Positions 31,972 through 63,412 of a stretch of 64,000 nt of DNA are shown here, piece by piece. The stretch's first letter is position 1. Each line of letters begins with the position of its first letter. Made by a program: the position numbers and the translations under genes. The stretch covers positions 5,578 to 69,577 of the forward strand of contig DASQGL010000028.1 of NCBI GenBank assembly GCA_035632635.1, read 5' to 3'. This stretch comes from Candidatus Limnocylindrales bacterium. Lineage in GTDB: Bacteria; Chloroflexota; Dormibacteria; CF-121. Under the pieces are notes generated by a model. The model worked only from the letters and a program-made list of their open reading frames with translations. It was not told the DNA's origin and ran no database searches.

Positions 31972-31985
31972 CCACCCGCCCGGCG

Positions 31986-37846: not shown

Positions 37847-37849
37847 GCG

Positions 37850-41982: not shown

Positions 41983-42036
41983 CATCAGCATGGTAACCGC
42001 CGTACAATCGACCCGTGACCTGACGAGGCCGTCCCC

Positions 42037-43752: not shown

Positions 43753-45572
43753 AGCGTGTCGAGCTCCGGAAATTGCAGCACCGAGATGAACGAGTCGTTG
43801 AAGTCGGCTCGGGCGGAGAGCTCGACGTACTCCACCTGCTCGGGAAGGTCGAAGGCAACCTGCCGCTCGCGGAAGGAGAGCAGTGTCATCTTCGCGCCCT
43901 CGCCAGCGGTGTTGCCAACCGAGAGGATCCGGTCGACCGGCACCGGGGGCACGAGACCGATGATCCTCGCGCTCTCCGGATTCAGATAGGAGCCGAACGA
44001 GCCGCCCAAGAGCACTTCATCGAGATCCCCGGCACTGACCCCGAGTTCGTCCATGAGCACCTTGATGCCGCCCGCAATCGACCCCTTGCCAAACTGCAAT
44101 TCGCGGACGTCCTTCTGGCTCAGGTAGACGCTATCGGCGAGCAGGAAGGCGCGCACGCCGTCGACCGTGATCAGCCGATCGGAGAGTGGGTGCTCGGGGA
44201 CCTCCTCGCGGCTCCGCATCCGGCCGGACGCATCGAGCAGGCCGCACAGCCGCAACTGCGCGATCGCGTCCACGAGTCCCGACCCGCAGATACCTCTTGC
44301 GGGGACGTCGCCGCCGATGATCTGGAGCTCGACGCGATCGCCGAGCGTGACCCCCTCGATGGCACCCTCGGTGGCCCGCATCCCGCACTTGATCTGGCTG
44401 CCTTCGAAGGCGGGGCCCGCCGGGGCGGCGGTGGCCAGGATCCGTCGCGACGACCCGAGCACGATCTCACCGTTGGTGCCCACGTCGACGAAGACGCGCA
44501 GCTTCTCTTCGCGGCCCAGCCCGGTCGCGATCACGCCCGCCACGATGTCCGCGCCGACGTAGGCGCCGATCAGCGGAAGGGTCTGAACCTTGCCGTTCGG
44601 ATGGATCTCCAGCCCGGCATCCCGGGCGTCCACGTAGAGGGCGCCGTGGAAGGCCGGAGTGAACGGCACCATCGAGATCGGGGTCGGATCGATGCCCAGC
44701 AACAGGTGCAGCATGGTCGCGTTTCCAACCACGACCGCCTCGTAAACCCGATCCCGTGCGACGCCGGACTCGGAGAACAGCTCGCTCAGGATGCCGTTCA
44801 TGCTGGTCCGGATCGCCGCTTGCAGCTCGCCAAGCGCCTCCGGCCCCAGCATGGCGTGGCTGATGCGGGAGATCACGTCCGCGCCGAAGGGCGCCTGGCC
44901 GTTGAGCGTCGACCGCACGGCTTCCGCCATCCCGGTGCGGAGGTTCATCAAGGTCCCGACCACGGTCGTCGTGCCGACATCGAACGCGACCCCGTAGCAG
45001 GCATCACGCGTGTCCCCGCCTTCTACGGCGATCAGCTGGTCCCCACCCAGGACCGCGGTCACCCTGAAGTCAGATGCGCGGAGCGTCGCCGGCAGCCGGG
45101 CCAGGACGGCGACGTTCCCCTTCATGTCGAAGCCCTCAGCGGTCAGCGCGTCCTGCAGGCGCTCGATGTCGCCTCGTTGGTCGGCGAGCGTCGGCTCCTG
45201 CAGCTCCACGTACACCTTGCGCACGTTCGGATCCAGCAACACCAGCCGGTTCACGCCCATGGTCGCCGCCTTGGGCACCCGCTGCAGCTCGGGCACCAGG
45301 CAGACCGTGTCCTGATAGACCTTCGATTGGCAGCTGAGCCGCCAGCCGGCCGCGATCTCGGACTCCCGCAGCTCCTTGCGGTCGGCCGTGGTGACGTCCA
45401 GGCCGCCATCCAGCACCTGGACCTTGCACTTGCCGCAGGTCCCCCGGCCACCGCAGGTCGAGTCGATCGGGAGGCCGATCCAGTGCGCCGCACTGAAGAG
45501 GGTGGTCCCCGGCGGGACCCGCGTCACCCGGTCGTACGGCTTGTAGGTGACCTCGAGCTTCTTGGCGATCAT
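43749..45572 (-). CDS. RACo-type reductive activator of corrinoid proteins (N-terminal plant-type [2Fe-2S] ferredoxin domain followed by an ASKHA ATPase domain)
   Basis: CGGRGTCGKCKV...C ferredoxin motif, then a long ASKHA-fold region (FDVGTTTVVG, DVGTNGEIV) and about 600 aa total length. Confidence 0.7.
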   Translation of the reverse strand: MIAKKLEVTYKPYDRVTRVPPGTTLFSAAHWIGLPIDSTCGGRGTCGKCKVQVLDGGLDVTTADRKELRESEIAAGWRLSCQSKVYQDTVCLVPELQRVPKAATMGVNRLVLLDPNVRKVYVELQEPTLADQRGDIERLQDALTAEGFDMKGNVAVLARLPATLRASDFRVTAVLGGDQLIAVEGGDTRDACYGVAFDVGTTTVVGTLMNLRTGMAEAVRSTLNGQAPFGADVISRISHAMLGPEALGELQAAIRTSMNGILSELFSESGVARDRVYEAVVVGNATMLHLLLGIDPTPISMVPFTPAFHGALYVDARDAGLEIHPNGKVQTLPLIGAYVGADIVAGVIATGLGREEKLRVFVDVGTNGEIVLGSSRRILATAAPAGPAFEGSQIKCGMRATEGAIEGVTLGDRVELQIIGGDVPARGICGSGLVDAIAQLRLCGLLDASGRMRSREEVPEHPLSDRLITVDGVRAFLLADSVYLSQKDVRELQFGKGSIAGGIKVLMDELGVSAGDLDEVLLGGSFGSYLNPESARIIGLVPPVPVDRILSVGNTAGEGAKMTLLSFRERQVAFDLPEQVEYVELSARADFNDSFISVLQFPELDTL

Positions 45573-46441
45573 GGACTGACCGGGGCCGGCGCTTTCTTCT
45601 GCCGTTCGCGGAAATCCGCAATCCAGCGCATCGCGTACTCGTCGTGTCCGAGCAGCAGGTCCGACGCCAGCACCGCCATCCGGACTTCACCGATCAGCGG
45701 ATTCGTGATGGCGCAGGTCAGTCCCGCACGCATCGCAACCGGCAGCCAGGCCGCGTTCAGGGCATGCCGGTCGGGCAGACCGAACGACACGTTCGAGGCG
45801 CCACACGTCATGTTGTTGCCGAGTTCGTCCCGGATCAGCTCCATCGTGCGCAACGTGATCACTCCCGCCTGCGGGTCGGCAGCCACGGTCATGGCGATCG
45901 GATCGATGACGACATCTTCCCTTGGAATGCCGTAGTAGACGGCACGCTCGACGATCTTGCGGGCGATCTGCAGCCGCTCCTCGGGCACCATCGTGATGCC
46001 GGTCTCGTCGTTGGCCATGCCGATCACGGCGGCGCCGTGCTTGCGCACCAGTGGCAGGATGCGATCGAGTCGTTCATCCTCGGCGGTGACCGAGTTGACG
46101 AGCGCCTTGCCCTCGTAGATCGGCAGGGCCGCCTCGAGGGCCTCGACGACCGAGGAGTCGAGGCAGAGGGGGACGTCGACCACCTCGGACACCGCGCGGA
46201 TGGTGGCCACGAGCAGGGCGGGCTCGTCGATCCCGGGAACGCCGGCGTTGACGTCCAGCATCTGGGCGCCCGCCGCGACCTGCGCGACCGCATCGGCCTT
46301 GACCCGCTCCATCCGCCCCACCTTCATCTCGGCGGCGAGGACCTTGCGGCCGGTCGGATTGATGCGCTCGCCGATCATGACGAACGGGGCTGCGCCGGAA
46401 ATCACGACCTCCCTCGAGCGGGAGCGCAGGATGGTCTCCAC
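45569..46441 (-). CDS. Methyltetrahydrofolate:corrinoid methyltransferase (pterin-binding DHPS-like TIM barrel; MtgA/AcsE/MetH-MeTr-like)
   Basis: VMIGERINPTGRK pterin-binding signature and about 290 aa length. Confidence 0.7.
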   Translation of the reverse strand: METILRSRSREVVISGAAPFVMIGERINPTGRKVLAAEMKVGRMERVKADAVAQVAAGAQMLDVNAGVPGIDEPALLVATIRAVSEVVDVPLCLDSSVVEALEAALPIYEGKALVNSVTAEDERLDRILPLVRKHGAAVIGMANDETGITMVPEERLQIARKIVERAVYYGIPREDVVIDPIAMTVAADPQAGVITLRTMELIRDELGNNMTCGASNVSFGLPDRHALNAAWLPVAMRAGLTCAITNPLIGEVRMAVLASDLLLGHDEYAMRWIADFRERQKKAPAPVSP

Positions 46442-47412
46442 TAGGCGCCCTCCGGGAGCGCCGCCACGCGAACGCCCGGTCCCGGGCCGGCCGCCGGACG
46501 GGGCAGCAGGCCTGCCTCCTCGACCACCGCCAGAACGCCCTCGTCCCAGCGGATCGCGATCACATGCACGCCGCGAACGCCGGGAATCTCGCGCAGGCCA
46601 CTGACCAGTTCGACGGCAATCCGGATGCCTTCCTGTGCCTGGCGTTCCGTGGGCACACCCTCGATGCGGCGGACGATCGACTCGGGGACGAAGACGCCCG
46701 GCACTTTCTCCCTCATGAATCGAGCGCCCCGGGCGGATCGCGGGACCGCGACCGATGGAATGATGGCCACCCGCTCGAGCAAGCCGAGGTCGCGCACCCG
46801 GGCCATGAAGTCCGCCAGCCCGCGCAGGTTGAAGACGAGCTGCGTCTGGATGAACTCGGCACCGGCCTCCACTTTCTTCTGCAGCCGCGCCGGCCGAAAC
46901 GCGATTGGCGGCGCAAACGGGTTCTCGACCGCGCCGATGAAGAAGCTCGGGGGCGCGTCCAGCTTCCGCCCACTCAGATAGATGCCCCGGTCGCGCATGG
47001 TGCGGGCGATCTGGACGAGCTGTATCGAGTCGATGTCGTAGATGGAGCGCGCCTCCGGATGGTCCCCGGCGCTGACGTCGTCGCCGCTCATCATGATCAC
47101 GTTGCGGACACCGAGCGCCGCGGCGCCCAGCAGGTCCGCCTGCAGACCGAGGCGATTGCGGTCCCGGGTCGTGAGCTGCATGATCGGCTCGATGCCCGCC
47201 TCGGCCAGCAGGTGGGCCGCCGCCAGGGGCGACAGATGCACGTGGGCTCCGGTGTTGTCGGTGCAGTTGATCGCGTCGGCGTGCGCGCGCAGCCTGGACG
47301 CGCGGGCGATGGTCACCGCCGGGTCGGGGCTGTCGATGGCGGAAAGCTCCGCCGTGACCACGAACTCGCCGCGCTGAAGGAGCTCCCCCAGCCGGCTGGG
47401 CGGATGGCTCAC
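46441..47412 (-). CDS. metF: 5,10-methylenetetrahydrofolate reductase
   Basis: The GTG start overlaps the metV stop (GTGA). FVVTAELSAIDSP, TDNTGAHVH and MQLTTRDRNR motifs of MTHFR. Confidence 0.75.
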   Translation of the reverse strand: MSHPPSRLGELLQRGEFVVTAELSAIDSPDPAVTIARASRLRAHADAINCTDNTGAHVHLSPLAAAHLLAEAGIEPIMQLTTRDRNRLGLQADLLGAAALGVRNVIMMSGDDVSAGDHPEARSIYDIDSIQLVQIARTMRDRGIYLSGRKLDAPPSFFIGAVENPFAPPIAFRPARLQKKVEAGAEFIQTQLVFNLRGLADFMARVRDLGLLERVAIIPSVAVPRSARGARFMREKVPGVFVPESIVRRIEGVPTERQAQEGIRIAVELVSGLREIPGVRGVHVIAIRWDEGVLAVVEEAGLLPRPAAGPGPGVRVAALPEGA

Positions 47413-47783
47413 ATCCGATCGCCGTCCCAGCCGGCCGGCCGGCGATGGTCGCGCCCGCTGACGAGATTGATCCAGGAGGAGGTGCCCTTCAGCCGCCAGT
47501 CCACGGGCGGGTTGAGATGCTGCATGTGGTCGCGCCACAGCGGGAGGCGCCGTGATCCCTCATACGCCTTCACCCAGACGCAGGGCCGGTCGGGAAACAC
47601 CTCGCAGTTCCCGTTGGCGCGAACGCCGCCGCAAGGCCCGTTGCGCAGGTTCTTGGGACAGCGCATCGGGCAGGTCAACCCGGTCGAGTGCAGGATGCAT
47701 TGGCCGCACATCCGGCAGTCCCAGATGGCCTCCTTGAGCGGTTTCTCGAGCGCGATCACGGCCTGTTCGAGGAGAGTGCCCAT
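47409..47783 (-). CDS. metV: MetV-like zinc-ribbon protein (MTHFR C-terminal-like domain, small partner subunit of MetF in acetogen-type systems)
   Basis: Cys-rich CRMCGQCILHSTGLTCPMRCPKNLRNGPCGG pattern, located immediately upstream of and coupled to metF. Confidence 0.6.
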   Translation of the reverse strand: MGTLLEQAVIALEKPLKEAIWDCRMCGQCILHSTGLTCPMRCPKNLRNGPCGGVRANGNCEVFPDRPCVWVKAYEGSRRLPLWRDHMQHLNPPVDWRLKGTSSWINLVSGRDHRRPAGWDGDRM

Positions 47784-47790
47784 CGCCCGG

Positions 47791-48507
47791 TTACCCCTTC
47801 TTGAGCGTCTTGTCGATCAGCTCGACGGCCTGGGTCAGCGCCGCGTTCTCGGCCGCCTGCGCCGCGCCCACGATTTGCTTCGCCATCCGCGTGGCCATCG
47901 ACGCGTCAGGCGCGTAATGGTCGGCGCCGGACAGCTTCGCGTATTCCTCGGTCACGGGGGCCCCGCCAACCATGACGGCGACCTTGTCGCGCAGGCCCGC
48001 CTTCTTGAGCGCCTCGATGTTGACCTTGAACATGGGCATGGTCGTGGTCAGGAAGGCGGAGAAGCCGACGATATGCGGCTCGTGCGTCCGGACAGCCTCG
48101 ACGAACTTCTCCGGCGCGGTGTTCACGCCGAGGTCGACGACCTCGAAACCGGCGCCTTCGAGCATGATGATCACGAGATTCTTCCCGATGTCGTGGATAT
48201 CGCCCTTGACCGTCCCGATCACGTACTTCCCGATGGGTTTTGCACCGGTCTCGGCGATCAGCGGGCGGAGCAGGGTCAGGGCGCCCTGCATGGCGCGCGC
48301 CGCAATCAGCATCTCCGGCACGAAGAACTCCCCGCGCTCGAACCGGCGGCCGACCTCCTCGAGCGAGGGAATCAGCGCCTTGAAGAGGATGTCCATCGGA
48401 TCCATCTTCAAGGCGAGCGCCTCTTCGGTCAGCCGCTTGACCTCGGGGGCGTGGCCGTTGAGCGTGTGGTCGAACAGCTCCTGTCGAATCTCGTCCTCGC
48501 GACTCAT
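47791..48507 (-). CDS. Cobalamin-binding corrinoid protein (MtgC/MtmC-like)
   Basis: AGGAGG RBS; B12-binding DxHxxG motif (GDIHDIGKN) in a Rossmann-like domain after an N-terminal helical cap. The internal ATG at 48507 is the real start, not the 49392 ORF-track start. Confidence 0.8.
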   Translation of the reverse strand: MSREDEIRQELFDHTLNGHAPEVKRLTEEALALKMDPMDILFKALIPSLEEVGRRFERGEFFVPEMLIAARAMQGALTLLRPLIAETGAKPIGKYVIGTVKGDIHDIGKNLVIIMLEGAGFEVVDLGVNTAPEKFVEAVRTHEPHIVGFSAFLTTTMPMFKVNIEALKKAGLRDKVAVMVGGAPVTEEYAKLSGADHYAPDASMATRMAKQIVGAAQAAENAALTQAVELIDKTLKKG

Positions 48508-49313
48508 CCCTGGCCTCCTCCTGCCCGCACTTCCGCCGCCGCCGAATAGCCGAGCCGCTGCGAGATCGCCTCGCCGGCTTCCTTCGCCATCTCTCCCAGT
48601 TCCTGCAGGCGCTGTGGGCTGACCCGGTAGGCGGGGCCCGCGATGCTGACCGCGCCGACCACCCGACCTTCCGCTCCCTTGACGGGCGCCGCGACCGCGT
48701 TCAGGCCCACCTCCAGCTCTTCGAGCGTGAAGGCATAGCCGTCCTCGAGAACCCGCTTGAGCTGGCGTTCGAGGGTGTGGCGGTCCGTGATCGTCCGGGG
48801 CGTGAACCGCCGCAGTGGGCCCGCGAGAATCCGATCCCGCTGGGCGGCGTCCGCGTGGGCGAGGAGGACCTTCCCGTTCGAGGTGCAGTGCAGGGGGGTC
48901 TGCTTGCCGACCCAGTTCACGTTCACGACCAGGTGCGCCGCCGTGATCTGATCGATGTTCACGACCTGATCTCCCTGGAGGACCGCGAGGTTGACGGTTT
49001 CGTTGGTGCGCTCGGCGAGGTCCTCCAGGATCGCCCGCGCCGAGCGGGACAGGTCGAATTCCGCGACCACCGCGCCGGCCAGGCGGACGAGCCCGTAGCC
49101 GAGGCGGTACTTCTCGGTCAGCGGGTTCTGCTCCACGAGCCCGCGAGCCTCCAGCGTGGCGAGCAGCCGGAAGGCGGTCGATTTGTGCACCTCGAGCCGG
49201 CGAGCCAGGTCGGTCACGCCCATCTCCCGCCCGGCCGCCAAAAGGTCCAGGATCTCGAGCGCCCGGTCGAGCGACTGCACCTTTTTGTTGCGCACTCCAA
49301 AACTGGTGCTCAT
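48504..49313 (-). CDS. IclR-family transcriptional regulator
   Basis: N-terminal HTH (LDRALEILDLLAAGREMGVTDLARRLEVHKSTAFRLLATLE) and a C-terminal effector domain; 4-nt overlap with the corrinoid-protein start. Confidence 0.75.
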   Translation of the reverse strand: MSTSFGVRNKKVQSLDRALEILDLLAAGREMGVTDLARRLEVHKSTAFRLLATLEARGLVEQNPLTEKYRLGYGLVRLAGAVVAEFDLSRSARAILEDLAERTNETVNLAVLQGDQVVNIDQITAAHLVVNVNWVGKQTPLHCTSNGKVLLAHADAAQRDRILAGPLRRFTPRTITDRHTLERQLKRVLEDGYAFTLEELEVGLNAVAAPVKGAEGRVVGAVSIAGPAYRVSPQRLQELGEMAKEAGEAISQRLGYSAAAEVRAGGGQG

Positions 49314-49483: not shown

Positions 49484-50201
49484 CTTGGCGAGCGAGGTCG
49501 AAGCTCGTCCGCTCGCGCGCCGGCAAGGCCTGGACCCGGCACAGCTCCGGACCGTGGTCCTGCACGGCGATTCGGCGCGGTCGCAGAGCCAGCGCGCCTA
49601 CCTCCTGATCCGGGACCAGATCGTCACCCTGAAACTCGCTCCCGGGTCGGTGATCGAGGAGGCTCGCCTGCGCGAGGATCTGCACCTGGGCCGGACCCCG
49701 ATCCGCGAGGCGCTCCAGCGGCTCGCCCACGAGAATCTCGTCTCCTTCGTCCCCCACCGGGGCACCTTCGTGACCGACATCAACATCCAGGACCTCGGCC
49801 ATCTCACCGAGGTCCGCACCGAGCTCGAGGGCTATGCGGCCCGGCTTGCGGCCGAGCGCGCCTCCGTCGCCGAGCGCGGGGCGATGGGCGCCCTGCTCAC
49901 CGAGCTGCGGAGCACGCAGTCCGCCGGGCCGCTCGCCCTGATGCAGCTCGACCAGAAGATCCACCGGCAGATCTACCGGGCAACCCGCAACGGGTTCCTG
50001 GCGGGCGTCCTCGAGCAGTACTTCAACCTGACGCTGCGGCTCTGGTTCCTGGTCCTCGACCGGGGCGTCCATCTGCGGGAAGCGGTGCAGGAGCATCGCG
50101 AAGCGCTCGAGGCAATCGTGGGAAGGGAAGCGGCGACGGCGGAGGCGATCATGCGCCGGCACGTGGTCGGTTTCGAACAGGAAGTCCGGCGGGTGCTCTG
50201 A
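49484..50201 (+). CDS. GntR-family transcriptional regulator (FadR/FCD subfamily); probable TTG start
   Basis: wHTH LLIRDQIVTLKLAPGSVIEEARLREDLHLGRTPIREALQRLAHENLV plus a helical FCD domain. Confidence 0.7.
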
Positions 50202-51159: not shown

Positions 51160-51235
51160 CGGATGGAGGTGATCCACACAGCGAACTCACGATAATCGGC
51201 GATCGGCGAATCAAGGAATGAATGGAGGAACGTAT

Positions 51236-52873
51236 ATGGCGACAGGGACGGCCGCACCGCCCCGACAGACCCTCTTCCTGAGGAATGCCACCGGCCTCGT
51301 GAAGGCATGGTCCGGTTTCGATGCGTTCATTTACTCGTTCATGTCGGTCAATCTCGTCGCGCTCGGTTTCGGCGCCTTCGCGTCGGCGGGGTTCATCGCC
51401 AACGGGCATATCCTCTCCGCGGTGATCATTGCCGGCATCTTCGTGACCTTCCTGGTCCTGACCTATGCCATCCTCGTCGCGGCAATGCCGCGGGCGGGCG
51501 GGGATTACACCTGGCAATCGCGCGTGCTCGGCGGCGGCGCCGCCTTCGTCCTCTCGATGACCGGCTGGTGGTTCATCCTGTGGCACTGGACGCCGATCTA
51601 CGCGGCCATCCTCAACCAGCAGGTGCTCGCTCCCCTGTCGGCGACGATCGGCCGGACCGACTGGGCGACATTCTTCAGTCCTACCACCGGTACCGGCCTG
51701 TTCGTGGCCTGCCTCGTCGTTCTCGCCTTCGTCTGCGTGTACGTGACCATGGGCATGGAGGGCTACGCCAAGATCCAGAAGTTCTGCTTCTGGCTCGGGC
51801 TGGCCGGCCTCGCGGTCATGGCCGTGCTCCTGCTCGTCAACGACCAGACCTCGATGCAGAACGCCATCAACCGTGAGGCGACGAGCATCTTCGGCTACCA
51901 GGGCAATGCCTACCAGGACACGCTCAAGGTCGCCACCAAGGCCGGATACAGCGTGACCGGCTTCAACGCCTTCTCATTCGGACCGACGCTCGCGCTCGTT
52001 CCGTTCCTTCTCTTCTATCTCCTCTGGCCCGTGTGGGGCGCGACTCTGTACGGTGAGGTGCGCGGCACCAAGGACTACCGGAGGATCTTCAACTCGATGT
52101 TCTGGGGCCTTTGGGTCACCGTGATTCTCTCCGTGGTCGTCCTGCTGCTCCTGGCCAAGACGATCGGCTGGGAGTTCTTCCAGGCAGCCGCCTACAATGC
52201 CACATTCGGGGTGGCCAATGCGCCCATTCCGATCTGGCCCCATCCGGTCATGCTCACGGGCTGGTTGGTACATAACCACGCGTTCCAGTTCATCCTGCTG
52301 GCGGTCATGAGCGTCTGGTTCTGGGGCTGGTCCGGGACGCTCTTCCTGTCCTCGACCCGTGTCATCTTCGCGGCCGCTTTCGATCGGGTTCTGCCGGAGT
52401 GGGCCGCGAATATCTCCGCCAAGCGCCGGGTGCCCTACGGGGCGCTGATCCTGATGGTGGTTCCGGCACTCGTGATCAGCGCGATCTATGCCTACGTCAA
52501 CGGCTTCAGCACGCTCGTCCTCGACGCGACGCTCGTTATCGCCATCACCTATCTCGGCACGGTGGTAGCCGCGGCCATCCTGCCCTGGCGACGGCCGACG
52601 ATCTTCACCAACTCCCCGATCGCGAAGCTACGGGTCGGCGGAGTCCCGGTGATCACGGTCGGCGCCGCGGTGGCGGGCGTCTTCCTGATCTTCAACATCG
52701 TCAAGTGGCTCGCCGATCCGACCTACGGCATCGGGCTGAGCAACCCGAAATCGATGTGGTACCTGGCCGCGATGTATGTTCTCGCCCTCGTCGTCTACGT
52801 CGCCGCATTCCTGTATCGCCGCTCGCAGGGCATCGACCTGCGCGCCATTCACCACGAGATTCCCGTCGAGTAA
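51236..52873 (+). CDS. APC-superfamily amino acid / polyamine / organocation permease
   Basis: A GGAGG RBS precedes the ATG at 51236. About 12 TM helices with APC-like topology. Confidence 0.7.
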   Translation: MATGTAAPPRQTLFLRNATGLVKAWSGFDAFIYSFMSVNLVALGFGAFASAGFIANGHILSAVIIAGIFVTFLVLTYAILVAAMPRAGGDYTWQSRVLGGGAAFVLSMTGWWFILWHWTPIYAAILNQQVLAPLSATIGRTDWATFFSPTTGTGLFVACLVVLAFVCVYVTMGMEGYAKIQKFCFWLGLAGLAVMAVLLLVNDQTSMQNAINREATSIFGYQGNAYQDTLKVATKAGYSVTGFNAFSFGPTLALVPFLLFYLLWPVWGATLYGEVRGTKDYRRIFNSMFWGLWVTVILSVVVLLLLAKTIGWEFFQAAAYNATFGVANAPIPIWPHPVMLTGWLVHNHAFQFILLAVMSVWFWGWSGTLFLSSTRVIFAAAFDRVLPEWAANISAKRRVPYGALILMVVPALVISAIYAYVNGFSTLVLDATLVIAITYLGTVVAAAILPWRRPTIFTNSPIAKLRVGGVPVITVGAAVAGVFLIFNIVKWLADPTYGIGLSNPKSMWYLAAMYVLALVVYVAAFLYRRSQGIDLRAIHHEIPVE

Positions 52874-52944: not shown

Positions 52945-54192
52945 GTGCTGCTCGACAGCGTTCTTCGCAGCTACCAGTCGCCGACCCGCATGGTCCATGC
53001 GATCGGCGCCATCAAGGCCCTCGGCGACGAGGTCAAGGCGCTTGGCGTGCGCCGGCCGCTCCTCGTCACCGATCAGGGCATCGTCAAAGCCGGGCTGCTC
53101 GACGAAGCGATGACGCCGCTCAAGGCGGCCGGCCTCGATCCCGTGCCGTTCGCCGAGGTGCGGGCCAACCCCGGGATCGCGCTCGTCGACCAGGGGGCGC
53201 GCGAGTACCAGACGCAGCGCTGCGACGGCCTGATCGGGATGGGCGGGGGGAGTTCGATCGATACGGCGAAGGGCATCGGGGTGGTCGCCGTGCATGGCGG
53301 CAGCATCGTCCAGTACGAGTGGGGCAAGGACCCCATTCACTCGCGGATTCCGCCGCTCGTCGCCGTGCCCACCACCGCCGGCACCGGTAGCGAGGTGACC
53401 CTCTGGGCCGTGATCACCGATCCGAATCGCAAGATCAAGTTCAACGTGGGCGGGACGCCCAACATCGCAGCGCACGTGGCGCTCATCGATCCGGCGCTCT
53501 CGGTCAACCTGCCGCCCGGCGTGACCGCGGGCACTGGAATGGATGCGCTCACCCACGCAATCGAGTGCTTCACCATGGCCTACCACCAGCCCTTCACCGA
53601 CGCAGTCGCCCTGCTCGGCATGGAGTACTGCGCGAAATGGTTGCGGATCGCGTTCTCCCAGTCGCACAACCTGGAAGCGCGCTACCACATGTCGCTGGGC
53701 GCCATGCTCGCCGGGCTGGCCTACGGCACCGATTCGGCCGGGGCGGCGCACGCGATGAGCCAGTCGGCGGGCGGCGTTCACGATGCGCCGCATGGCGCGC
53801 TCACCGGCCGCCTGCTCGCGCCCGTCATGGAATACAACTACTCCGGCGAACCGGAGCGCTTCGCTCGGATCGCGCAGGCGATGGGCGAGGATACGCATGG
53901 CCTCTCCACCTGGAAGGCGGCCGAACTCGCCGTCGACGCCGTCTACCAGCTGACCGAAGACGTCGAGATCCCGAGCTTGAACGAGCTGGGCTTTTCCGAG
54001 GAGGAGATCCCGATGCTCGCGGAAAAAGCGGAAGCCGACGCTCAAACGATCGGCAATCCGCGCGACGTCGATGCCCGCAACTATCGCCGGATCTACGCCC
54101 GGGCTTTCGAGGCCGGCCACCATCGGCATGCCGACGCGCATCACGATGGTGAGGTCGCCCACGCCGCCGAGGTCTCGCGTGTGGCGAAATAA
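52945..54192 (+). CDS. Iron-containing (type III) alcohol dehydrogenase family protein
   Basis: GTG start after an AAGGAGGAAGG RBS. GGGSSIDTAKG NAD-binding motif and Fe-ligand His residues (HAIECF...H). Confidence 0.75.
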   Translation: MLLDSVLRSYQSPTRMVHAIGAIKALGDEVKALGVRRPLLVTDQGIVKAGLLDEAMTPLKAAGLDPVPFAEVRANPGIALVDQGAREYQTQRCDGLIGMGGGSSIDTAKGIGVVAVHGGSIVQYEWGKDPIHSRIPPLVAVPTTAGTGSEVTLWAVITDPNRKIKFNVGGTPNIAAHVALIDPALSVNLPPGVTAGTGMDALTHAIECFTMAYHQPFTDAVALLGMEYCAKWLRIAFSQSHNLEARYHMSLGAMLAGLAYGTDSAGAAHAMSQSAGGVHDAPHGALTGRLLAPVMEYNYSGEPERFARIAQAMGEDTHGLSTWKAAELAVDAVYQLTEDVEIPSLNELGFSEEEIPMLAEKAEADAQTIGNPRDVDARNYRRIYARAFEAGHHRHADAHHDGEVAHAAEVSRVAK

Positions 54193-55633
54193 CCTGCCGC
54201 GGGTCAACCTGCTCAGCGACGGCGAGGTCGAGCAGATCCACGCCCAGGCCATGCTGATCCTGAGGGAGATCGGTATCGACTTCCTCCACCCGCGGGCGCT
54301 GGAGCGGTTCAAGGCCGCCGGGCTGCCGATCGAGGAGAACCGCGTCCGTTTCGAAGAAGCCTTCATCCTGGAGCAGCTCCGGCAGGTGCCGGAGAGCTTT
54401 CAGGTCCAGGCGCGGAACCCGGCGAACACGGTCACGATCGGCGAGAACTACATGGTCAACGCTCCCGTCTACGGGTGTCCCTTCATCACGGATCTCGACC
54501 GCGGGCGGCGCAACGCCACCATCGGCGATTTCACGAACTTCGACAAGTTGGCGCAGGCGACGCCGCAGATTCACTGCGCCGGCGGCACCATCGTGGAGCC
54601 GGACGACCTCCCTCAGGAAACGCGTCATCTCGACATGGTCTACTCCCACATCCGATGGACCGACAAGCCGTACATGGGTGGCGTCATCTCCGAGGAGGCC
54701 GCCCGCGATTCGATCGAGATGAGCTCGATCGTCTTCGGTGGACGCGACCGGATTGAAAAGACCCCCGCGCTTCTCGCCCTGATCAACGTCAACAGCCCGA
54801 TGCGCTTCGATGACCGGATGCTGGGCGCCCTGATGGAGTACGCGGCTGCCAACCAACCCGCCATCGTCACCCCGTTCCTCATGGCCGGGGCCATGTCCCC
54901 GATGGGTCTGGCAGGAAGCATCGCCCAGCAAACGGCAGAGGCCCTCGCCGGGATCGCTCTCATCCAGCTCGTGAGGCCGGGCGCGCCCTGCGTCTACGGC
55001 TCCTTCCTCACGAACGTCGACATGCAGTCGGGAAGCCCAGCCTTCGGTACGCCGGAATCCGCGCTCGGCATCCTGGCCAGTGCCCAGATGGCCCGCCACT
55101 ACCGGATCCCGTTCCGCGGCGGGGGCGCGCTGACCTCGTCCAAGTCCCCGGATGCCCAGGCTGCCTACGAGTCGATGATGTGCATGTGGCCGACGGTCCT
55201 CGGCGGCGTCCACTTCGTCTTGCACGCCGCCGGCTGGCTCGAGAGCGCGCTGCTGGCCTCCTACGAGAAATTCATCATCGATGTCGAGTGCCTGCGCATG
55301 TTCGAATGGATGATGACCAAAGGCATCCCGTTCGACGACGAGGGTCTGGCCATGGATGGGATCCGCGAGGTCGGACCGGGCGGCCATCATCTCGGATCCG
55401 AGCACACCATGCGGAATTACCGCACCGGCTTCTACCGGCCGCTGATCTCGTCGACCGAGAGCTTCGATCGCTGGAACCGGATGGGCGCCCGGACCGCCGA
55501 CCGGGTGGCGAATGAAAAGTGGAAGCAGATGCTGGCGGATTACAAGGACCCCGCAATCGATCCTGGGGTGGAGGAGCAATTGCAGGCGTTCATGTCCAGG
55601 CGGAAGGAGGAGATTCTGGGTGCCCGCGTCTAA
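54178..55633 (+). CDS. MttB-superfamily (trimethylamine methyltransferase-like) corrinoid methyltransferase without in-frame amber codon, consistent with a glycine betaine/quaternary-amine-type (MtgB-like) member
   Basis: GTG start (MWRNNLPRVNLLSDGEVEQIHAQ...), TIM-barrel-length protein of about 485 aa with MttB family features, and no internal UAG. It overlaps the Fe-ADH gene end by 15 nt. Confidence 0.7.
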
Positions 55634-56396
55634 GGTCACGAGCAAGCCGCTGGAAGACGTCATCGACGAGGCCCGCCGGATCGGTGAGGCTGCGGAGGCG
55701 GCCGGGCTCCAGCTGAAGCTGGTTGGCGGGGCCGCGGTTCGCCTGCATTCGGCGACCACCGAGCGTCCGCCGCTGCGCCGGCGTTACGGCGACCTGGATT
55801 TCGTGGCCTCGTCCAAGCAGCGTGGCCAGGTCCAGAAGCTGTTCGAATCGCTCGGTTACCAGGGGGACCTTCGGTTCAATACGCTGAACGGGCACCAGCG
55901 GCTGCTCTATCTCGACCCCGAAAACGGCCGGCAGGTCGACATCTTCATCGACGTGATGCGCATGTGCCACACGATCGACCTGCGATCGCGGCTCAACCAT
56001 GCCGGTCCGACCCTGACGCCAGCCGACCTGCTCCTCAGCAAGATGCAGATCTACGAGATCAACAAGAAGGACGTCGTCGACATCACGGCGCTCTTCCTCG
56101 ACCACGACATCGGGGAGGACGACAACGACCGGATCAACGCGACCTATCTCGCCGGGCTGGCAGCCGGGGAGTGGGGACTCTACCGGACGCTGCAGCTCAA
56201 CGCCGAGCGGCTGCGGGCCGCGGTCGACGACCTGGCCGTCGCGCGCGAGATCGTGCTGGAGCGGCTCGAGCGGCTTCGTGAGCGCATCGAGGACCAGCCG
56301 AAATCCCTGAAGTGGAAAGTTCGGGCCCGGGTGGGTGACCGGGTCAGCTGGTACGAACTCCCTGAGGAGGTCCGGCAGCCGTACCAGGCTGAGTAA
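55619..56396 (+). CDS. Hypothetical protein, possible nucleotidyltransferase-fold protein
   Basis: The GTG start overlaps the MttB-family gene by 15 nt. LVGGAAVRLHS...YGDLDFV resembles a minimal nucleotidyltransferase G-S/D-x-D core; the assignment is weak. Confidence 0.35.
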
Positions 56397-56423: not shown

Positions 56424-58562
56424 TCAGGCTGCGCGAGCGCGCTTCTCGGCATACATCTCGCGGTCGGCGGCCGCGAGCAGCTCCTCCGCCGTGGCCCCAT
56501 CGCTCGGGTGCGCCGCGGTCCCGATCGAAACGGAGATGGGGTCTGCGCCCTCGACCGCGGTCAGGAGGGTACCGCTGATCCGCCGCGCGAGCGAGACGGC
56601 GCCGACGCGATCGACCGACGGCATCAGGATCAGGAATTCGTCGCCGCCCCAGCGGCAGACGATGTCGTCCTCTCGAAGGTTGGCGCGCAGGACATCGGCG
56701 ACGCGACGCAGGACGGCGTCTCCGCTGCGATGCCCGGCGGCGTCATTGACGCGCTTCAGCCCGTCGACGTCGAGCATGAGCACGCTGAACGCCTCCGCCG
56801 AGCTCGCCAGCCGTTCGCGCAGCTTGTCCTCGAAAGCGCGCCGGTTCCTGAGCCCGGTCAGGGAATCGGTCATGGCGCTGACCGCCAGGCTTTCGAGCAG
56901 GCGGGCATTCGCGATCGAAACCGCCGCCTGGTTGGCGAGGATCGTCAGCAGCCGGAGGTGATCGCTGCTGTATTGATGCAGCCCGATCTTCACCGTGACG
57001 AAGACGCCCACCAGCTTGTCGTGGAACGTGACAGGCACGGCCAGCATGGACTCGTCGCTGTCGCCCGTCCCCGGGACGTGCATCGCCTTGGGATGCCGCT
57101 CGGTGTCGCCGATCATGACGCCGTGCCGGGTCTCGGCCACCCACCCCGTGATCCCTTCACCCAGGCGCAGGGCCAGGCTCTCGGCAGTCACGCTCGCGTA
57201 CTCCTCCCGTTGCGTGTCGCTGAAATAGGCAGGCCGCAGCGTCACGCCGTCGTCCTGCAGGAGATAGATGCGGCACTGGTCGTAGGGAAGCAGGGTCACG
57301 ATCGTCTCTCCGATGGACTGGCAGACCTCGTGGACACCTGTGATGCTGGCCAGGCGGGCCCCGAGCTGTTCGATCGCGTCCAGGTGCCTCGTCCAGGCCT
57401 GGGCCGGCTCCGGGCGGTCGGCATGGCGGGCGACGTCGTCGGTGCCTTCGATCACGACCTCGCCACTCTCGATCACGGCGAGGAGCGCGCGCACGACCTC
57501 GGGATCGAACTGCCGGCCGGCCTGCGCGCGCAGCTCCTCCAGCCGTTGCCGCTGGGGGAGCGCGGGGCGGTAGGGGCGATCGCTCGACATCGCCTGCAAG
57601 GCGTCGCAGGCATGGATGATGCGGGCTTCGATCGGGATGTCCTTCCCTGCCAGCCGATCCGGATATCCCTCGCCATCCCAGCGCTCGTGCTCGGCGCGGA
57701 CGATCGGCCGGATCGGCGCCAGGAACGGGACCGAGGCGAGGATGCGCTCCCCGATGACCGGATGCTCGCGCATGATCGCCATCTCTTCGGGATCGAGCGG
57801 CCCCGGCTTGTTCAGGATGTAGCCCGGAATGCCGATCTTCCCGATGTCGTGCAGCAGGGCCGCGTATTCGAGGAAGCGCAGCCGATCGTCGGCAAGGCCG
57901 ACCCGCCGCCCCACGGCGCGGGCCAGCGCGGTCGTCTCGCGAGAGTGCGCCTCGGTGTGACGGTCCTTTGCATCCAGGGCCGCCGCCAGGGCCTCGATCG
58001 TCGCGAGGTACGTCTTCTCCAGCTCGCTGCGACGTTCCTCGGCGACGCGGTTCTCATCGGTGAGCATGCGGCGTACCCGGGAAGGCAGGTATGCGCCGAT
58101 CGCCATGCAGGCTACGAGCATGAGCAGCGACCGAGCGTAGAAGGCATCCCACTGGAAGACGAGCGGGACCGCCGCGCCGATCGCACCAAGCGCGGCGATG
58201 GCGGCAGTCGTCCGCCACCCCGCCAGGGAGGCGCAGAAGACCACGAGCACGAGGAAGAGGGAGGTGAGGTGAGACCGCACACCGCCGGTGAACAGGACGC
58301 TCACGGTCAGCATGCCCGTGCCGGCAACGATGACAGCCAGGAAGCGCTCCGGGGGGAATCGCTCCCAGGGCAGGAACCAGCAGAGGAAGCCTCCCAGGAA
58401 CGCCAGGCCAGCGATCACCCACTCGCCCAGGTAGTTGACCTGCAGTCCCGGCCCGAGGTAGTTGCTCGCCTGGGCCACGGCCGTCAGACCCCAGAACGCG
58501 ACGGCCGCGGTCCGGACAGCCGTCCGGTGCAGCTTGAGCGGTAGCTCGGGATGCGCGGCCAT
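56424..58562 (-). CDS. Membrane-anchored multidomain c-di-GMP signalling protein (TM region, HD-GYP phosphodiesterase domain, GAF domain, GGDEF diguanylate cyclase domain); start is one of several in-frame ATGs at 58562-58625
   Basis: HDIGKIGIP...RWDGEGYPDRLAG (HD-GYP), a GAF-like middle region, and the GGDEF motif RWGGDEFLIL. Confidence 0.7.
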   Translation of the reverse strand: MAAHPELPLKLHRTAVRTAAVAFWGLTAVAQASNYLGPGLQVNYLGEWVIAGLAFLGGFLCWFLPWERFPPERFLAVIVAGTGMLTVSVLFTGGVRSHLTSLFLVLVVFCASLAGWRTTAAIAALGAIGAAVPLVFQWDAFYARSLLMLVACMAIGAYLPSRVRRMLTDENRVAEERRSELEKTYLATIEALAAALDAKDRHTEAHSRETTALARAVGRRVGLADDRLRFLEYAALLHDIGKIGIPGYILNKPGPLDPEEMAIMREHPVIGERILASVPFLAPIRPIVRAEHERWDGEGYPDRLAGKDIPIEARIIHACDALQAMSSDRPYRPALPQRQRLEELRAQAGRQFDPEVVRALLAVIESGEVVIEGTDDVARHADRPEPAQAWTRHLDAIEQLGARLASITGVHEVCQSIGETIVTLLPYDQCRIYLLQDDGVTLRPAYFSDTQREEYASVTAESLALRLGEGITGWVAETRHGVMIGDTERHPKAMHVPGTGDSDESMLAVPVTFHDKLVGVFVTVKIGLHQYSSDHLRLLTILANQAAVSIANARLLESLAVSAMTDSLTGLRNRRAFEDKLRERLASSAEAFSVLMLDVDGLKRVNDAAGHRSGDAVLRRVADVLRANLREDDIVCRWGGDEFLILMPSVDRVGAVSLARRISGTLLTAVEGADPISVSIGTAAHPSDGATAEELLAAADREMYAEKRARAA

Positions 58563-58634
58563 GACGCTGCGTACAACGAGGTCCCCGCGACCTTCCATCG
58601 CCGGAGGGCGCAGGCCTGCCATCATGGCAAGGCG

Positions 58635-59321
58635 GTGATACGCGTATTCGTCACGAATACGGAGCTCAAGAGCGGGCAGCTCCGGCTGGACGGCGCCCGC
58701 GGCCGTCACCTGGCGCGCGTCCTCCGAGCTCATCCCGGCGAGCACGGGGTGGCGGTCGCCGACGGTCTCGAGTACCGGTTCACGATCGCGGCGATCGACG
58801 GCGACCTGGTCAGGGCGACGGTGGACGGCGTCGCCCCGGCGCAGGGAGAGCCTGGCCACCCGGTCATCCTCCTTCAGGCCCTTCTCCCGCATGGCGACTT
58901 CGACAGCGTGCTGGAAGCAGGCACCCAGGTCGGCATCACGCGTTTCATTCCCGTCACCGCGTCGCGGTCCGTCGGGCGCGCCGGGGCGGACCGCGCTGGT
59001 CGCTGGCACGCGATCGTCGAGGCGGCCGCCGCCCAGAGTCAGCGGGGCGCGATCCCGGTCGTCGATCCGCCGCGCTCACTCGCCGACGCGCTCGGCTCGA
59101 TCCGGGGGACGCGGCTCTTCGCCCTCGACCCGGACGCGGGGGCGACGCTGCCGAAGACCGGCCTCCGGGAGGCGGTGGCGATCGCGGTCGGCCCGGAAGG
59201 CGGGTGGACGGCGGAAGAGCTGGAGGCGATGGTCGCGGCCGGCGCCACCCGCGTCGGACTCGGCCCGCGCATCCTGCGCGCGCGGCTGGCCGGCGTGATT
59301 GCCGCTGCTATCCTCCTGTAG
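58635..59321 (+). CDS. rsmE: 16S rRNA (uracil1498-N3)-methyltransferase RsmE
   Basis: The N-terminal PUA-like region (VIRVFVTNTELKSGQLRLDGARGRHLARVLR) and the C-terminal SPOUT region (IAVGPEGGWTAEELEAM) both match RsmE. GTG start. Confidence 0.7.
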   Translation: MIRVFVTNTELKSGQLRLDGARGRHLARVLRAHPGEHGVAVADGLEYRFTIAAIDGDLVRATVDGVAPAQGEPGHPVILLQALLPHGDFDSVLEAGTQVGITRFIPVTASRSVGRAGADRAGRWHAIVEAAAAQSQRGAIPVVDPPRSLADALGSIRGTRLFALDPDAGATLPKTGLREAVAIAVGPEGGWTAEELEAMVAAGATRVGLGPRILRARLAGVIAAAILL

Positions 59322-61946: not shown

Positions 61947-62792
61947 TCAGGCGGCGGTTTCGGTCGCCCGGAACTCGACGATCGCCCCGTGCCCGCTCCG
62001 CTTCGCCTGATAGAGGGCGACGTCGGCGTGCGCGAGCAGGCTGTCGGGGGTCGCCCCGTCCTTCGGGAAGGTGGCCATCCCGATGCTGAAGGAGACGGAA
62101 TAGCCGCTGGCGGGCTCCACCTGCCGCATCGCATGGTAGGTGTCCTGGATGCGTTGGGCCACGACCCGGGCCCCGGCCCCGTCGGTATCCGACAGGAGCA
62201 CGACGAACTCGTCGCCGCCAAACCGGAAGACCGCGTCGCCGACTCGGACCGCTCCGCGCAGCACGCCGGCCACCTCCCGAAGCAGCTCGTTGCCGGCGCT
62301 GTGGCCAAGGTGGTCGTTCACGGCTTTGAAGCCGTCGATGTCGAGCATCAGGAGCGTCATCGCCCGGCCGGTGCGGGCCGCCGGGCCGAGCCAGGCCGGC
62401 AGTTGCTCGCGCAACGCCCGCGGATTGTAGAGTCCGGTCAGGTCGTCGATCCGGCTCATCCGTGAGAGGCGGCGCCGCTCGGCCTCCCAGCGACCGGTGA
62501 GGATCGTGGCGTAGCCGTAGATCAGCGCCCGGGAACAGACATTGATCAACAGCGGCAGGCCCGCGGCTCCGCTGAGTGCGCCGGAGATGACCGCCGCCGC
62601 GACCGCGATCAGCAGGGCGATCGGCAGTGGAAGCAGGACCGCCGCGCTCAAGGCCACCATGAAGTAGACGAGGCTGAGGTCGAGCCCGCCGGCGCCGTAC
62701 TGATCCAGGTATCCGACCGCCGCGATCGCCGCCAGCAGGCCGGTGAGCCACAGGATCCGCCGGTAGCCGAGTCCATGGGCGTCGGCCCTCAT
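61947..62792 (-). CDS. Membrane-anchored GGDEF-domain diguanylate cyclase
   Basis: The internal ATG at 62792 (MRADAHG...) precedes 3-4 TM helices and a GGDEF domain with an RxGGDEF active site (RFGGDEFVVL). The upstream part of the 61947..63200 ORF is a spurious extension. Confidence 0.7.
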   Translation of the reverse strand: MRADAHGLGYRRILWLTGLLAAIAAVGYLDQYGAGGLDLSLVYFMVALSAAVLLPLPIALLIAVAAAVISGALSGAAGLPLLINVCSRALIYGYATILTGRWEAERRRLSRMSRIDDLTGLYNPRALREQLPAWLGPAARTGRAMTLLMLDIDGFKAVNDHLGHSAGNELLREVAGVLRGAVRVGDAVFRFGGDEFVVLLSDTDGAGARVVAQRIQDTYHAMRQVEPASGYSVSFSIGMATFPKDGATPDSLLAHADVALYQAKRSGHGAIVEFRATETAA

Positions 62793-62929
62793 GTCAGGCG
62801 CGGGGACGCTCACGTCGCCTGCCCGAGGAGGCCGGACCGACTGGGAACGGCGAATCGTCTCGAAATCGTCATGAGGACGCCACCGGCATAACGGCGGGCG
62901 CCAGGTTCTTTTGCGAATTCGCGGGCGGG

Positions 62930-63412
62930 TCAGCGGCTGCGAATCCGTCCGGCCGACCCGAGTCCGAAGAGGAGCCAACCGATCAGCAGGGCGCCGCCTC
63001 CCACGGCGAGCGCCGCGCCCGGGATGGCGCAGCCCGCCACCGCCCAGGGCACCGCCAGCGCCAGGCCGCTGAGCGCTTCGCGGATCGGCACTCCGCGGTC
63101 GATCGGTGTATCGCAGGCGGCGCAGCGGCCATGCTGGGTCAGGTAGCTGAGCACGGGTATCAGCTCCCCGGGGCTGAGTCGGTGGCTGCAAACGCGGCAA
63201 TGCGAAGGCGGCCAGAGAATCGATTCGCCCCGCGGAACCCGGTCGGTCACGAGCTCGAAGAAGCTGCCGAGCGCCAGGCCGAGGGGCAGCAAGAAGACCG
63301 CCCCCACCAGGTTGCAGAGCAGCTCAGCCCACACGACACGCTTCAGGCTACCGAAGCCGAGCGAAGCAAGAAGGCCACGAGCCGCCCGGTTGCACTTGCC
63401 ATCAGCTCCCAC
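62930..63412 (-). CDS. Stand-alone prepilin-peptidase N-terminal (DiS-P-DiS zinc-binding) domain protein with no A24 peptidase domain
   Basis: TM helix, then HCRVCSHRLSPGELIPVLSYLTQHGRCAACDTPI (tetra-Cys motif of the PilD N-domain), then a second TM helix and a stop. No peptidase-A24 region follows in any frame. Confidence 0.5.
   Translation of the reverse strand: MGADGKCNRAARGLLASLGFGSLKRVVWAELLCNLVGAVFLLPLGLALGSFFELVTDRVPRGESILWPPSHCRVCSHRLSPGELIPVLSYLTQHGRCAACDTPIDRGVPIREALSGLALAVPWAVAGCAIPGAALAVGGGALLIGWLLFGLGSAGRIRSR

Follow-up and report, generated by a model that had tools for sequence, protein, structure and literature searches.

We analyzed a 64-kb stretch of DNA from a soil Chloroflexota (Limnocylindrales) bacterium, hereafter the window, in which the gene for a pyrrolysine (Pyl)-free MttB-superfamily methyltransferase overlaps the end of a gene for a type-III iron-dependent alcohol dehydrogenase (Fe-ADH) of the GbsB kind. 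This methyltransferase is probably the methyltransferase 1 (MT1) of a three-component, cobalamin-dependent quaternary-amine:tetrahydrofolate system, and its substrate would most likely be choline-derived glycine betaine. Context is the main argument for this substrate, i.e., the GbsB-type dehydrogenase, the enzymes encoded beside the same gene pair in related genomes, the genes for dimethylglycine and sarcosine metabolism in the window, and an importer encoded beside close relatives of the methyltransferase that have no such dehydrogenase. The analysis covered the 64-kb window and related loci.

In the proposed scheme, the TIM-barrel pocket of MT1 would bind glycine betaine with R313 and H349 on the carboxylate and Y98 and W353 on the trimethylammonium group, and MT1 would move one methyl group onto a Co(I) corrinoid protein encoded upstream (Table 1). 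A pterin-binding methyltransferase 2 (MT2) would hand the methyl group to tetrahydrofolate (THF), methylenetetrahydrofolate reductase (MTHFR) and a DUF5981 protein would oxidize methyl-THF to methylene-THF, and a RACo-type activator together with a DUF1638 protein would re-reduce oxidized corrinoid. Dimethylglycine could then be converted to glycine by a dimethylglycine-dehydrogenase-like enzyme with its electron-transfer flavoprotein (ETF) and by a sarcosine-oxidase-like enzyme, the genes for which lie 13–20 kb upstream. On the supply side, the Fe-ADH, translationally coupled to MT1, would feed the pathway by oxidizing choline to betaine aldehyde, with the aldehyde dehydrogenase step presumably encoded elsewhere in the genome.

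The methyltransferase gene and its alcohol dehydrogenase partner

The window has a G+C content of about 68% and contains long chance open reading frames (ORFs) in all six frames. We take the methyltransferase to be a real gene and not a chance high-GC ORF because it matches PF06253 (MTTB) with 654.1 bits against a cut-off of 25 (E 1e-196, profile positions 21–499 of 500), its G+C content at third codon positions (GC3) is 0.87, and it aligns along its entire length with the structure entries of Desulfitobacterium hafniense MtgB (2qne/9yce), at E 1e-139 and 46.6% identity. Comparably strong is the match to the Sinorhizobium meliloti protein 4YYC (E 5e-138, 46.4% identity), these and all other structure comparisons being made by sequence alone (2qne/9yce, 4yyc, 7xcl). 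The translated product is 100% identical to an NCBI entry named [quoted passage not shown].

Relatives of the locus were collected through a scan of one genome per GTDB species, which gave at least 58 loci, and through identical-protein look-ups. Every one of the scanned loci came from a soil or sediment metagenome-assembled genome (MAG), mostly labelled Dormibacterota or Chloroflexi. We sorted the relatives into subgroup A, with 23 loci listed including the window and methyltransferases of 484 amino acids that are 78–87% identical to the window's, and subgroup B (L006, L023–L061), with about 35 loci listed and methyltransferases of 479–482 amino acids at 73–77% identity. A close-homologue set was made up of the window methyltransferase and its 120 closest homologues (n = 121). 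The methyltransferases of six loci (L012, L026, L036, L039, L051, and L065), 63–82% identical to the window's, come from MAGs labelled Acidoferrum, Verrucomicrobiia, Nitrosopolaris, Micrarchaeaceae, or Nitrosotalea, and the longer of these loci share the window neighborhood; such labels probably reflect binning contamination rather than transfer between phyla.

The sequence-only reading of this DNA had described an uninterrupted MttB-family frame overlapping the type-III Fe-ADH gene, and this holds, with corrected boundaries. Its start at 54178 is out of frame and would meet four stops; the in-frame GTG is at 54179, the product is 484 rather than 485 amino acids long plus TAA, and the overlap with the Fe-ADH gene, whose TAA stop lies at 54190–54192, spans 14 rather than 15 nt. 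The frame extends further 5′ to an ATG at 54071 that would yield 520 amino acids, a start ruled out by the homologue lengths and by the conserved ATG/GTG position. We place the start at 54179 because 77 of the 121 close homologues are 484 amino acids long and at least 112 begin with MW or VW, because the homologous position is ATG (20 loci) or GTG (L008) in the 21 other subgroup-A loci with an upstream Fe-ADH, and because a GAGG motif stands 6 nt 5′ of the GTG. The nested start itself, which had been singled out as a special feature, is unremarkable: an overlap of 14 nt with a GTG start and GGAGG/GAGG occurs in only two of the 23 subgroup-A loci (the window and L008), while in 20 the Fe-ADH stop falls 0–4 bases before an ATG start and in L015 the junction is unreadable. 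The C-terminal tail of the Fe-ADH has diverged alongside the overlap in the window and L008, departing from the relatives after residue ~391 in the window protein. We see in it a common form of translational coupling, acquired within a single sub-lineage and without further significance.

As the sequence-only reading had proposed, the methyltransferase belongs to the members of the superfamily that lack pyrrolysine. It has no in-frame UAG, and Leu318 (codon CTG) aligns with the pyrrolysine "X" of Methanosarcina barkeri MttB (7XCL), a position occupied by Leu in 118 and by Met in three of the 121 close homologues. Nothing resembling pylTSBCD was found in the window: ARAGORN detected no tRNA, no Rfam family reached its gathering score, and the PylS, PylB, PylC, and PylD Pfam families were absent from the ~60 ORFs scanned with Pfam, a scan that left out a few small ORFs. 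The sole radical-SAM protein among these ORFs is MiaB-like (UPF0004 and Radical_SAM domains). Since members without pyrrolysine are the norm in the MttB superfamily (PMC13080624), the missing amber codon is unsurprising and carries no special significance; among trimethylamine-methyltransferase family proteins without pyrrolysine, this one is ordinary. It is called "trimethylamine--corrinoid protein Co-methyltransferase" in most source databases and shares its Pfam family with the Pyl-type enzymes. A genuine trimethylamine (TMA) methyltransferase, either Pyl-independent or served by pyl genes elsewhere in the genome, is nonetheless very unlikely, given the Leu codon at the Pyl position, the absence of tRNA-Pyl from the window and of pyl genes from the ORFs scanned, and a score of 309.1 bits against the 525 cut-off of TIGR02369, the equivalog model of Pyl-type MttB. 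M. barkeri MttB shares superfamily and fold, but only residues 185–476 of the window protein, corresponding to the C-terminal two thirds, align well with it (E 5e-41, 144 bits), and the much closer D. hafniense MtgB is inactive on TMA.

The assignment of the upstream Fe-ADH to the family of GbsB choline dehydrogenase is likewise borne out. The protein scores 582.8 bits on NF053866 (CholDhdGbsBBac), above the 550 cut-off and over profile positions 9–392 of 392, with ErcA as the next-best model at 326.6, and it carries the GGGSxxD motif and the D/H metal motifs. A Fe-ADH gene lies directly upstream of the methyltransferase gene in 23 of the 23 subgroup-A loci listed.

A corrinoid methyl-transfer operon and the genes of related loci

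Divergent from the plus-strand operon that holds the gene pair, and 6–11 kb upstream, a minus-strand operon encodes the remaining components of a corrinoid methyl-transfer system (corrinoid set 43138–48507), which went unnoticed in the sequence-only reading. MT1, the corrinoid protein, and the THF methyltransferase are encoded within 10 kb of each other. The corrinoid protein has the motifs DxHxxG (GDIHDIG), SxL, and GG, and its best NCBIfam match is the glycine-betaine-specific MtgC_2, with 193 bits, below the cut-off of 370. MT2 passes NF005719 (300.8 bits; cut-off 259), the MTHFR, with its start chosen by comparison with a 317-amino acid homologue in L004, matches the reductase half alone of a bifunctional model, and the activator has an AcsV-like match at 436 bits, below the cut-off of 800. 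DUF1638 proteins have been proposed as accessories of corrinoid reactivation in split MetH and MtgBCD systems (PMC12478193). A Virulence_fact gene adjoins the DUF1638 gene in nearly all subgroup-B loci, and this co-occurrence suggests that its product is not a virulence factor but an unrecognized accessory in corrinoid-dependent methyl transfer.

Further upstream, the window encodes candidate enzymes for the later demethylation steps. The 838-residue DAO-GCV_T protein shares 42% identity with the DAO-GCV_T protein encoded after MttB in relatives, and the SolA-like flavoenzyme, a candidate for the step from sarcosine to glycine, scores 461 bits on NF008425 (cut-off 257).

Subgroup-A relatives provide much of the remaining context. 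Of the 21 other subgroup-A loci with enough downstream sequence, all but L008 (20 of 21) have an aldehyde dehydrogenase gene 1.5–4 kb downstream; DAO-GCV_T genes, singly or in pairs, are frequent, and a Choline_kinase/APH-family gene occurs in many of the loci. In L001 (5362–8698 and 11439–15439), L004, L009–L021, and L064, the gene pair sits within a larger operon that also encodes two DAO-GCV_T proteins, a Choline_kinase/APH-family protein, and an aldehyde dehydrogenase. A reduced form, in which the aldehyde dehydrogenase gene, the kinase gene, and the DAO-GCV_T genes on the flanks are all missing, is found in the window and in L008, the locus closest to it (87%). The sequence-only reading had considered a flux from choline through betaine to dimethylglycine conceivable for the gene pair. 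The pair alone cannot make betaine, and it is the wider context that suggests such a flux, namely the aldehyde dehydrogenase and dimethylglycine/sarcosine-dehydrogenase-like genes flanking the pair in relatives. None of the relatives' aldehyde dehydrogenase, kinase, or DAO-GCV_T proteins passed an NCBIfam equivalog model (e.g., 401 vs 668 for BADH and 200 vs 357 for GntI, the best match of the kinase), so that these enzymes do not discriminate between a betaine and a phosphocholine route.

The phosphocholine route would resemble that of MthB: choline would be phosphorylated, the MttB homologue would demethylate phosphocholine to dimethylaminoethanol phosphate and thereby bypass glycine betaine, the metallophosphoesterase-like protein encoded in the same operon would remove the phosphate, and Fe-ADH and aldehyde dehydrogenase would oxidize dimethylaminoethanol to dimethylglycine. 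It has a precedent in Eubacterium limosum, where MthB works with a kinase and demethylates phosphocholine, not choline (PMC12155760), and it would account for every gene of the large L001 operon, including the kinase-like gene that stands immediately 5′ of the Fe-ADH gene in many relatives and the metallophosphoesterase-like gene, which is as conserved as the Fe-ADH and methyltransferase genes (81–90% identity in those subgroup-A loci with enough upstream sequence to include it). A residue matching R312 of MtgB is also kept in MthB (PMC13080624). Yet a tblastn search with the L001 kinase-like protein (threshold E 1e-5, as for all such searches with relatives' proteins) found no choline-kinase-like homologue in the window, and the kinase gene is missing from L008, L020, and L021, all of which have the gene pair, as well as from all subgroup-B loci listed, which have an identical pocket signature. 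Moreover, the relatives' kinase belongs to the APH/choline-kinase family and passed no choline-kinase model, whereas MthK is described as serine-kinase-related, i.e., of another family, and the Tyr equivalent to Y97 of MtgB is kept here and reportedly not in MthB, which was compared by description only. We therefore regard this route as improbable.

Subgroup B bears on the same question from another side. Within the flanks examined, its loci contain no ADH, kinase, or phosphoesterase gene, and the neighbors of the methyltransferase gene are a FchA-like cyclohydrolase-domain gene, Virulence_fact, DUF1638, RACo, a Pterin_bind MT2, a corrinoid protein, and IclR, together with a PotD-type ABC importer. 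The same pocket without Fe-ADH and with an importer indicates that the substrate can also be imported as such. No MAG carried both subgroups among the matches listed.

Table 1 Features of the window on the plus (+) and minus (−) strands, in order of position.
Feature	Position	Strand	Basis and remarks
Dimethylglycine/sarcosine-dehydrogenase-like protein, 838 aa	34552–37068	+	DAO-FAO_M-GCV_T-GCV_T_C
Electron-transfer flavoprotein, beta (37082–37846) and alpha (37850–38821)	37082–38821	+	Pfam ETF, ETF_alpha
Monomeric sarcosine oxidase / N-methyltryptophan oxidase (SolA)-like flavoenzyme	40563–41711	−	PF01266; start uncertain
Virulence_fact domain protein	41708–42133	−	PF13769; accompanies DUF1638 in relatives
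DUF1638 protein	43138–43752	−	PF07796, 92 bits
RACo/RamA-type reductive activator (2Fe-2S and ASKHA ATPase)	43749–45572	−	Pfam Fer2, RACo_linker, Raco_middle, RACo_C_ter
Methyl-corrinoid:tetrahydrofolate methyltransferase (MT2; MtgA/MtgD-like)	45569–46441	−	PF00809 Pterin_bind
Methylenetetrahydrofolate reductase, MetF2-like	46441–47412	−	PF02219, 107 bits; probable GTG start 47412
Small MTHFR-associated protein, DUF5981 ("MTHFR C-terminal")	47409–47783	−	PF12225, 93 bits
Corrinoid (B12-binding) protein, MtgC-like, 238 aa	47791–48507	−	Pfam B12-binding_2 and B12-binding
IclR-family regulator, heads corrinoid operon	48504–49313	−	Pfam HTH_IclR and IclR_C; syntenic
GntR/FCD-family regulator, first operon gene	49485–50201	+	Pfam GntR and FCD; TTG start after GGAGG; syntenic in relatives
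Cytoplasmic metallophosphoesterase-like protein, 310 aa	50227–51159	+	Motifs DLHG, GGD, GNDD, HGHIHEG
APC-superfamily permease, candidate importer of substrate or precursor	51218–52873	+	PF13520 AA_permease_2, 77 bits
Type-III Fe-dependent alcohol dehydrogenase, GbsB-like, 415 aa	52945–54192	+	Pfam Fe-ADH and ADH_Fe_C
MttB-superfamily pyrrolysine-free methyltransferase (MT1; MtgB-like)	54179–55633	+	484 aa and TAA, GTG start
Conserved hypothetical protein, ~258 aa, last operon gene	55620–56396	+	GTG start after Shine–Dalgarno motif AGGAGGAG

The plus-strand operon runs from the GntR/FCD regulator through the metallophosphoesterase-like protein, the APC permease, Fe-ADH, and the methyltransferase to the ~258-residue hypothetical protein; promoter and terminator scans across 49.2–56.6 kb were uninformative. 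The metallophosphoesterase-like protein has a weak Metallophos_3 match (26 bits; cut-off 28.2), and its role may be to free choline from phosphocholine or glycerophosphocholine, or to remove phosphate from a demethylated product. The permease passes no NCBIfam model and is syntenic in subgroup A at 58–81% identity. The GTG of the last gene, at 55620, overlaps the 3′ end of the methyltransferase gene by 14 nt, the same length as the overlap between the Fe-ADH and methyltransferase genes; its product aligns with syntenic proteins of 256/257 amino acids in L001 and L005, with a sub-threshold hit to PF14907 as its sole family match. PDB searches with the 310-residue and ~256-residue conserved proteins gave marginal matches only. 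Directly 3′ of the operon lies a gene for a large HD-GYP/GAF/GGDEF signalling protein (56424–59009, minus strand) that is syntenic in all long subgroup-A loci, followed 3 kb further by a second GGDEF protein gene (61947–63200, minus strand).

On the far side of the corrinoid operon, the FAD motif RRFDVIIVGIGGMG of the sarcosine-oxidase-like gene stands 5′ of the first canonical start (ATG 41666). The only start-like codon in frame for this motif is a CTG at 41711–41709, which overlaps the TGA stop of the Virulence_fact gene as "CTGA"; the gene may have a non-canonical start or contain an assembly error. Three class-I S-adenosylmethionine-dependent methyltransferase genes (30384–31178, 31940–32680, and 33730–34476) lie just upstream of the dimethylglycine-dehydrogenase-like gene. 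Genes for a LigD primase-polymerase domain protein (3454–4830, minus strand) and a multicopper-oxidase/cupredoxin fusion protein (5443–7071, plus strand) are unrelated to the findings described here.

The substrate pocket and the choice of substrate

Work published in 2026 on MtgB, with mutagenesis and a liganded structure, traced the binding of glycine betaine to four residues: Y97 and F356 through cation–pi contacts, and R312 and H348 at the carboxylate (PMC13080624). The sequence-only reading had called for an alignment with MtgB and an inspection of the pocket. Three of the four residues are kept, Y97, R312, and H348 corresponding to Y98, R313, and H349 of the window enzyme; these positions are near-invariant among the 121 close homologues, with R313 and H349 each present in 120.

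The fourth position differs, and with it begins a list of observations that weigh against glycine betaine demethylation by an MtgB-like enzyme. F356, one of the experimentally validated residues, is replaced by Ala357, and in MtgB the change F356L raises the Km about 800-fold (PMC13080624). Four residues, or one helical turn, before 357, Trp353 replaces an Ile, as seen in the pocket loop "HAAGWLESAL" (MtgB, "HTAGILQYFM"; 4YYC, "HAAGWLEGGL"). We examined this pair of positions in a diverse-family set of 121 sequences, largely representatives of 50%-identity clusters: Trp at 353 accompanied a small residue at 357 in 37 members, a residue other than Trp accompanied an aromatic one in 51, and Trp and an aromatic residue never occurred together. 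Positions 353 and 357 are i and i+4 in an apparent helix that follows a strand ending at H348. The mutual exclusion of Trp and an aromatic residue fits a role of W353 in place of F356, and W353 may thus supply the second cation–pi partner; this compensation rests on covariation and helix periodicity, not on a structure.

The phylogenetic position of the enzyme also counts against a simple equation with MtgB. In a neighbor-joining tree built without bootstrap, the window enzyme falls with 4YYC in a W-type branch of 51 members that takes in all 38 W-type sequences, and MtgB falls outside this branch. It shares only 46.6% identity with D. hafniense MtgB, vs 65% between the biochemically proven MtgB proteins of D. 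hafniense and Methanolobus vulcani (PMC6855144). On both grounds, the window enzyme is not an MtgB ortholog in the strict sense. Residue 98 varies within the W-type branch, which therefore probably holds several specificities, and no usable function name was available for the nearest 50%-identity cluster representatives. Gene context adds further difficulties. A tblastn search with the relatives' protein found no aldehyde dehydrogenase homologue in the window (E 1e-5), which leaves the path from choline to betaine incomplete there, and neither the conserved metallophosphoesterase-like gene nor the choline-kinase/APH-like gene of many relatives has a role in the betaine scheme. Finally, the assignment of MtgB in the marine Ruegeria pomeroyi, whose system has the closest component list, comes from proteomic induction and not from knock-outs or assays of the pfam06253 proteins (PMC12478193).

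These observations leave some room for the same corrinoid system acting on another carboxylated quaternary amine, such as proline betaine, carnitine, gamma-butyrobetaine, or an undescribed compound, with Fe-ADH in an unrelated or preparatory step. The superfamily has at least six specificities that are not yet readable from sequence (PMC13080624, PMC12155760); the window enzyme lies outside the MtgB branch and lacks F356, its nearest 50%-identity cluster representatives differ at position 98, and R. pomeroyi-type genomes encode up to seven paralogues with supposedly different substrates (PMC12478193). However, the methyltransferase gene is accompanied by genes for the metabolism of choline, betaine, dimethylglycine, and sarcosine, none typical of carnitine or proline-betaine breakdown was found in the window or in the flanks of relatives, and the Y-R-H triad that contacts betaine is kept. 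We consider this alternative unlikely, and glycine betaine remains the substrate that we favor. We would give little credence to a bolder proposal, in which the ADH-linked subgroup acts on phosphocholine or another choline derivative and forms an oxygen-tolerant B12-dependent choline route that bypasses betaine, or, in a weaker form, in which the W353/small-357 swap marks a distinct pocket architecture across the W-type branch, 4YYC included.

Known systems and implications for soil bacteria

The closest known counterpart by component list is the MtgBCD/MetF2/RamA/DUF1638 system of R. pomeroyi DSS-3, with pfam06253, pfam02310, and pfam00809 proteins, MTHFR, RACo, and DUF1638 as in the window (PMC12478193). 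The comparison was made at the level of this list. In this aerobic bacterium, knock-outs of mtgC and mtgD abolish growth on betaine (2025, PMC12478193), and growth with betaine, choline, and carnitine induces the pfam06253 proteins along with MetF2, RamA, and DUF1638 (PMC12478193). The dimethylglycine and sarcosine steps are encoded nearby here and likewise in many marine genomes (PMC12478193). Several features set the two systems apart: the host is a soil Chloroflexota rather than a marine Pseudomonadota, the genes are clustered here and scattered in R. pomeroyi, and choline is oxidized by BetA/BetB there, whereas the window encodes a GbsB-type Fe-ADH. R. pomeroyi also shares MtgC and MtgD with a homocysteine-binding MtgE for methionine synthesis, and a scan of the window ORFs revealed no such pfam02574 protein. 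The published work is concerned with marine Pseudomonadota and makes no mention of Chloroflexota (PMC12478193).

D. hafniense MtgB (DSY3156) shares homology over its full length, a Leu at the Pyl position, and the residues Y97, R312, and H348, and it works with MtgC and MtgA; in both cases, genes for a corrinoid protein, a THF methyltransferase, and an activase lie close by. It differs by F356, where the window enzyme has Ala with a Trp four residues earlier, by its place in another major branch of the crude tree, and by its host, an anaerobe that respires with the methyl group, unlike the presumably oxygen-tolerant host of the window. The experimentally uncharacterized S. meliloti protein 4YYC, annotated as "putative trimethylamine methyltransferase", shares with the window enzyme the HAAGWLE loop, the Y-R-H-W signature, and the W-type branch, and is distinguished by a Gly at the F356 position, where the window enzyme has Ala, and by an N-terminus ~40 residues longer. 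A literature search found nothing relevant on MttB function in Dormibacterota or Chloroflexota, or on 4YYC.

E. limosum MthB/MthK offers another example of choline catabolism through the MttB superfamily with a corrinoid protein and a THF methyltransferase (PMC12155760), and some relatives of the window locus carry a kinase-like gene. That system relies on the MthK kinase, whereas the window has no kinase and instead an ADH, joined in relatives by aldehyde dehydrogenase, and the relatives' kinase is of a different family; its end product is excreted dimethylaminoethanol, in contrast to the downstream dimethylglycine and sarcosine enzymes found here. Direct sequence comparison with named enzymes covered MtgB, 4YYC, and M. 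barkeri MttB. As for the dehydrogenase, the window protein passes the equivalog model of Bacillus subtilis GbsB, but in Bacillus gbsB is paired with gbsA for osmoprotectant synthesis, whereas here the gene is paired with a demethylase gene, as would suit catabolism, and the window has no gbsA-like gene.

On the favored reading, the locus would extend a known MtgBCD-type system to a new phylum and habitat and add a Fe-ADH front end to it. Its novelty is modest and lies in the lineage of the host, the invariant association with a GbsB-type ADH, and the aromatic swap between W353 and the F356 position. If the reading is right, abundant uncultured soil lineages (Limnocylindria, Dormibacterota) would degrade choline and glycine betaine via a B12-dependent methyltransferase, and not by the oxygenase (GbcAB) or BHMT pathways that aerobes are commonly assumed to use. 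A pathway recently recognized in marine bacteria would then reach into soils, and a cobalamin demand would be added to soil carbon and nitrogen turnover. For the family at large, the covariation between W353 and the F356 position provides a testable residue rule that could help to annotate the thousands of MttB homologues now labelled "trimethylamine methyltransferase".

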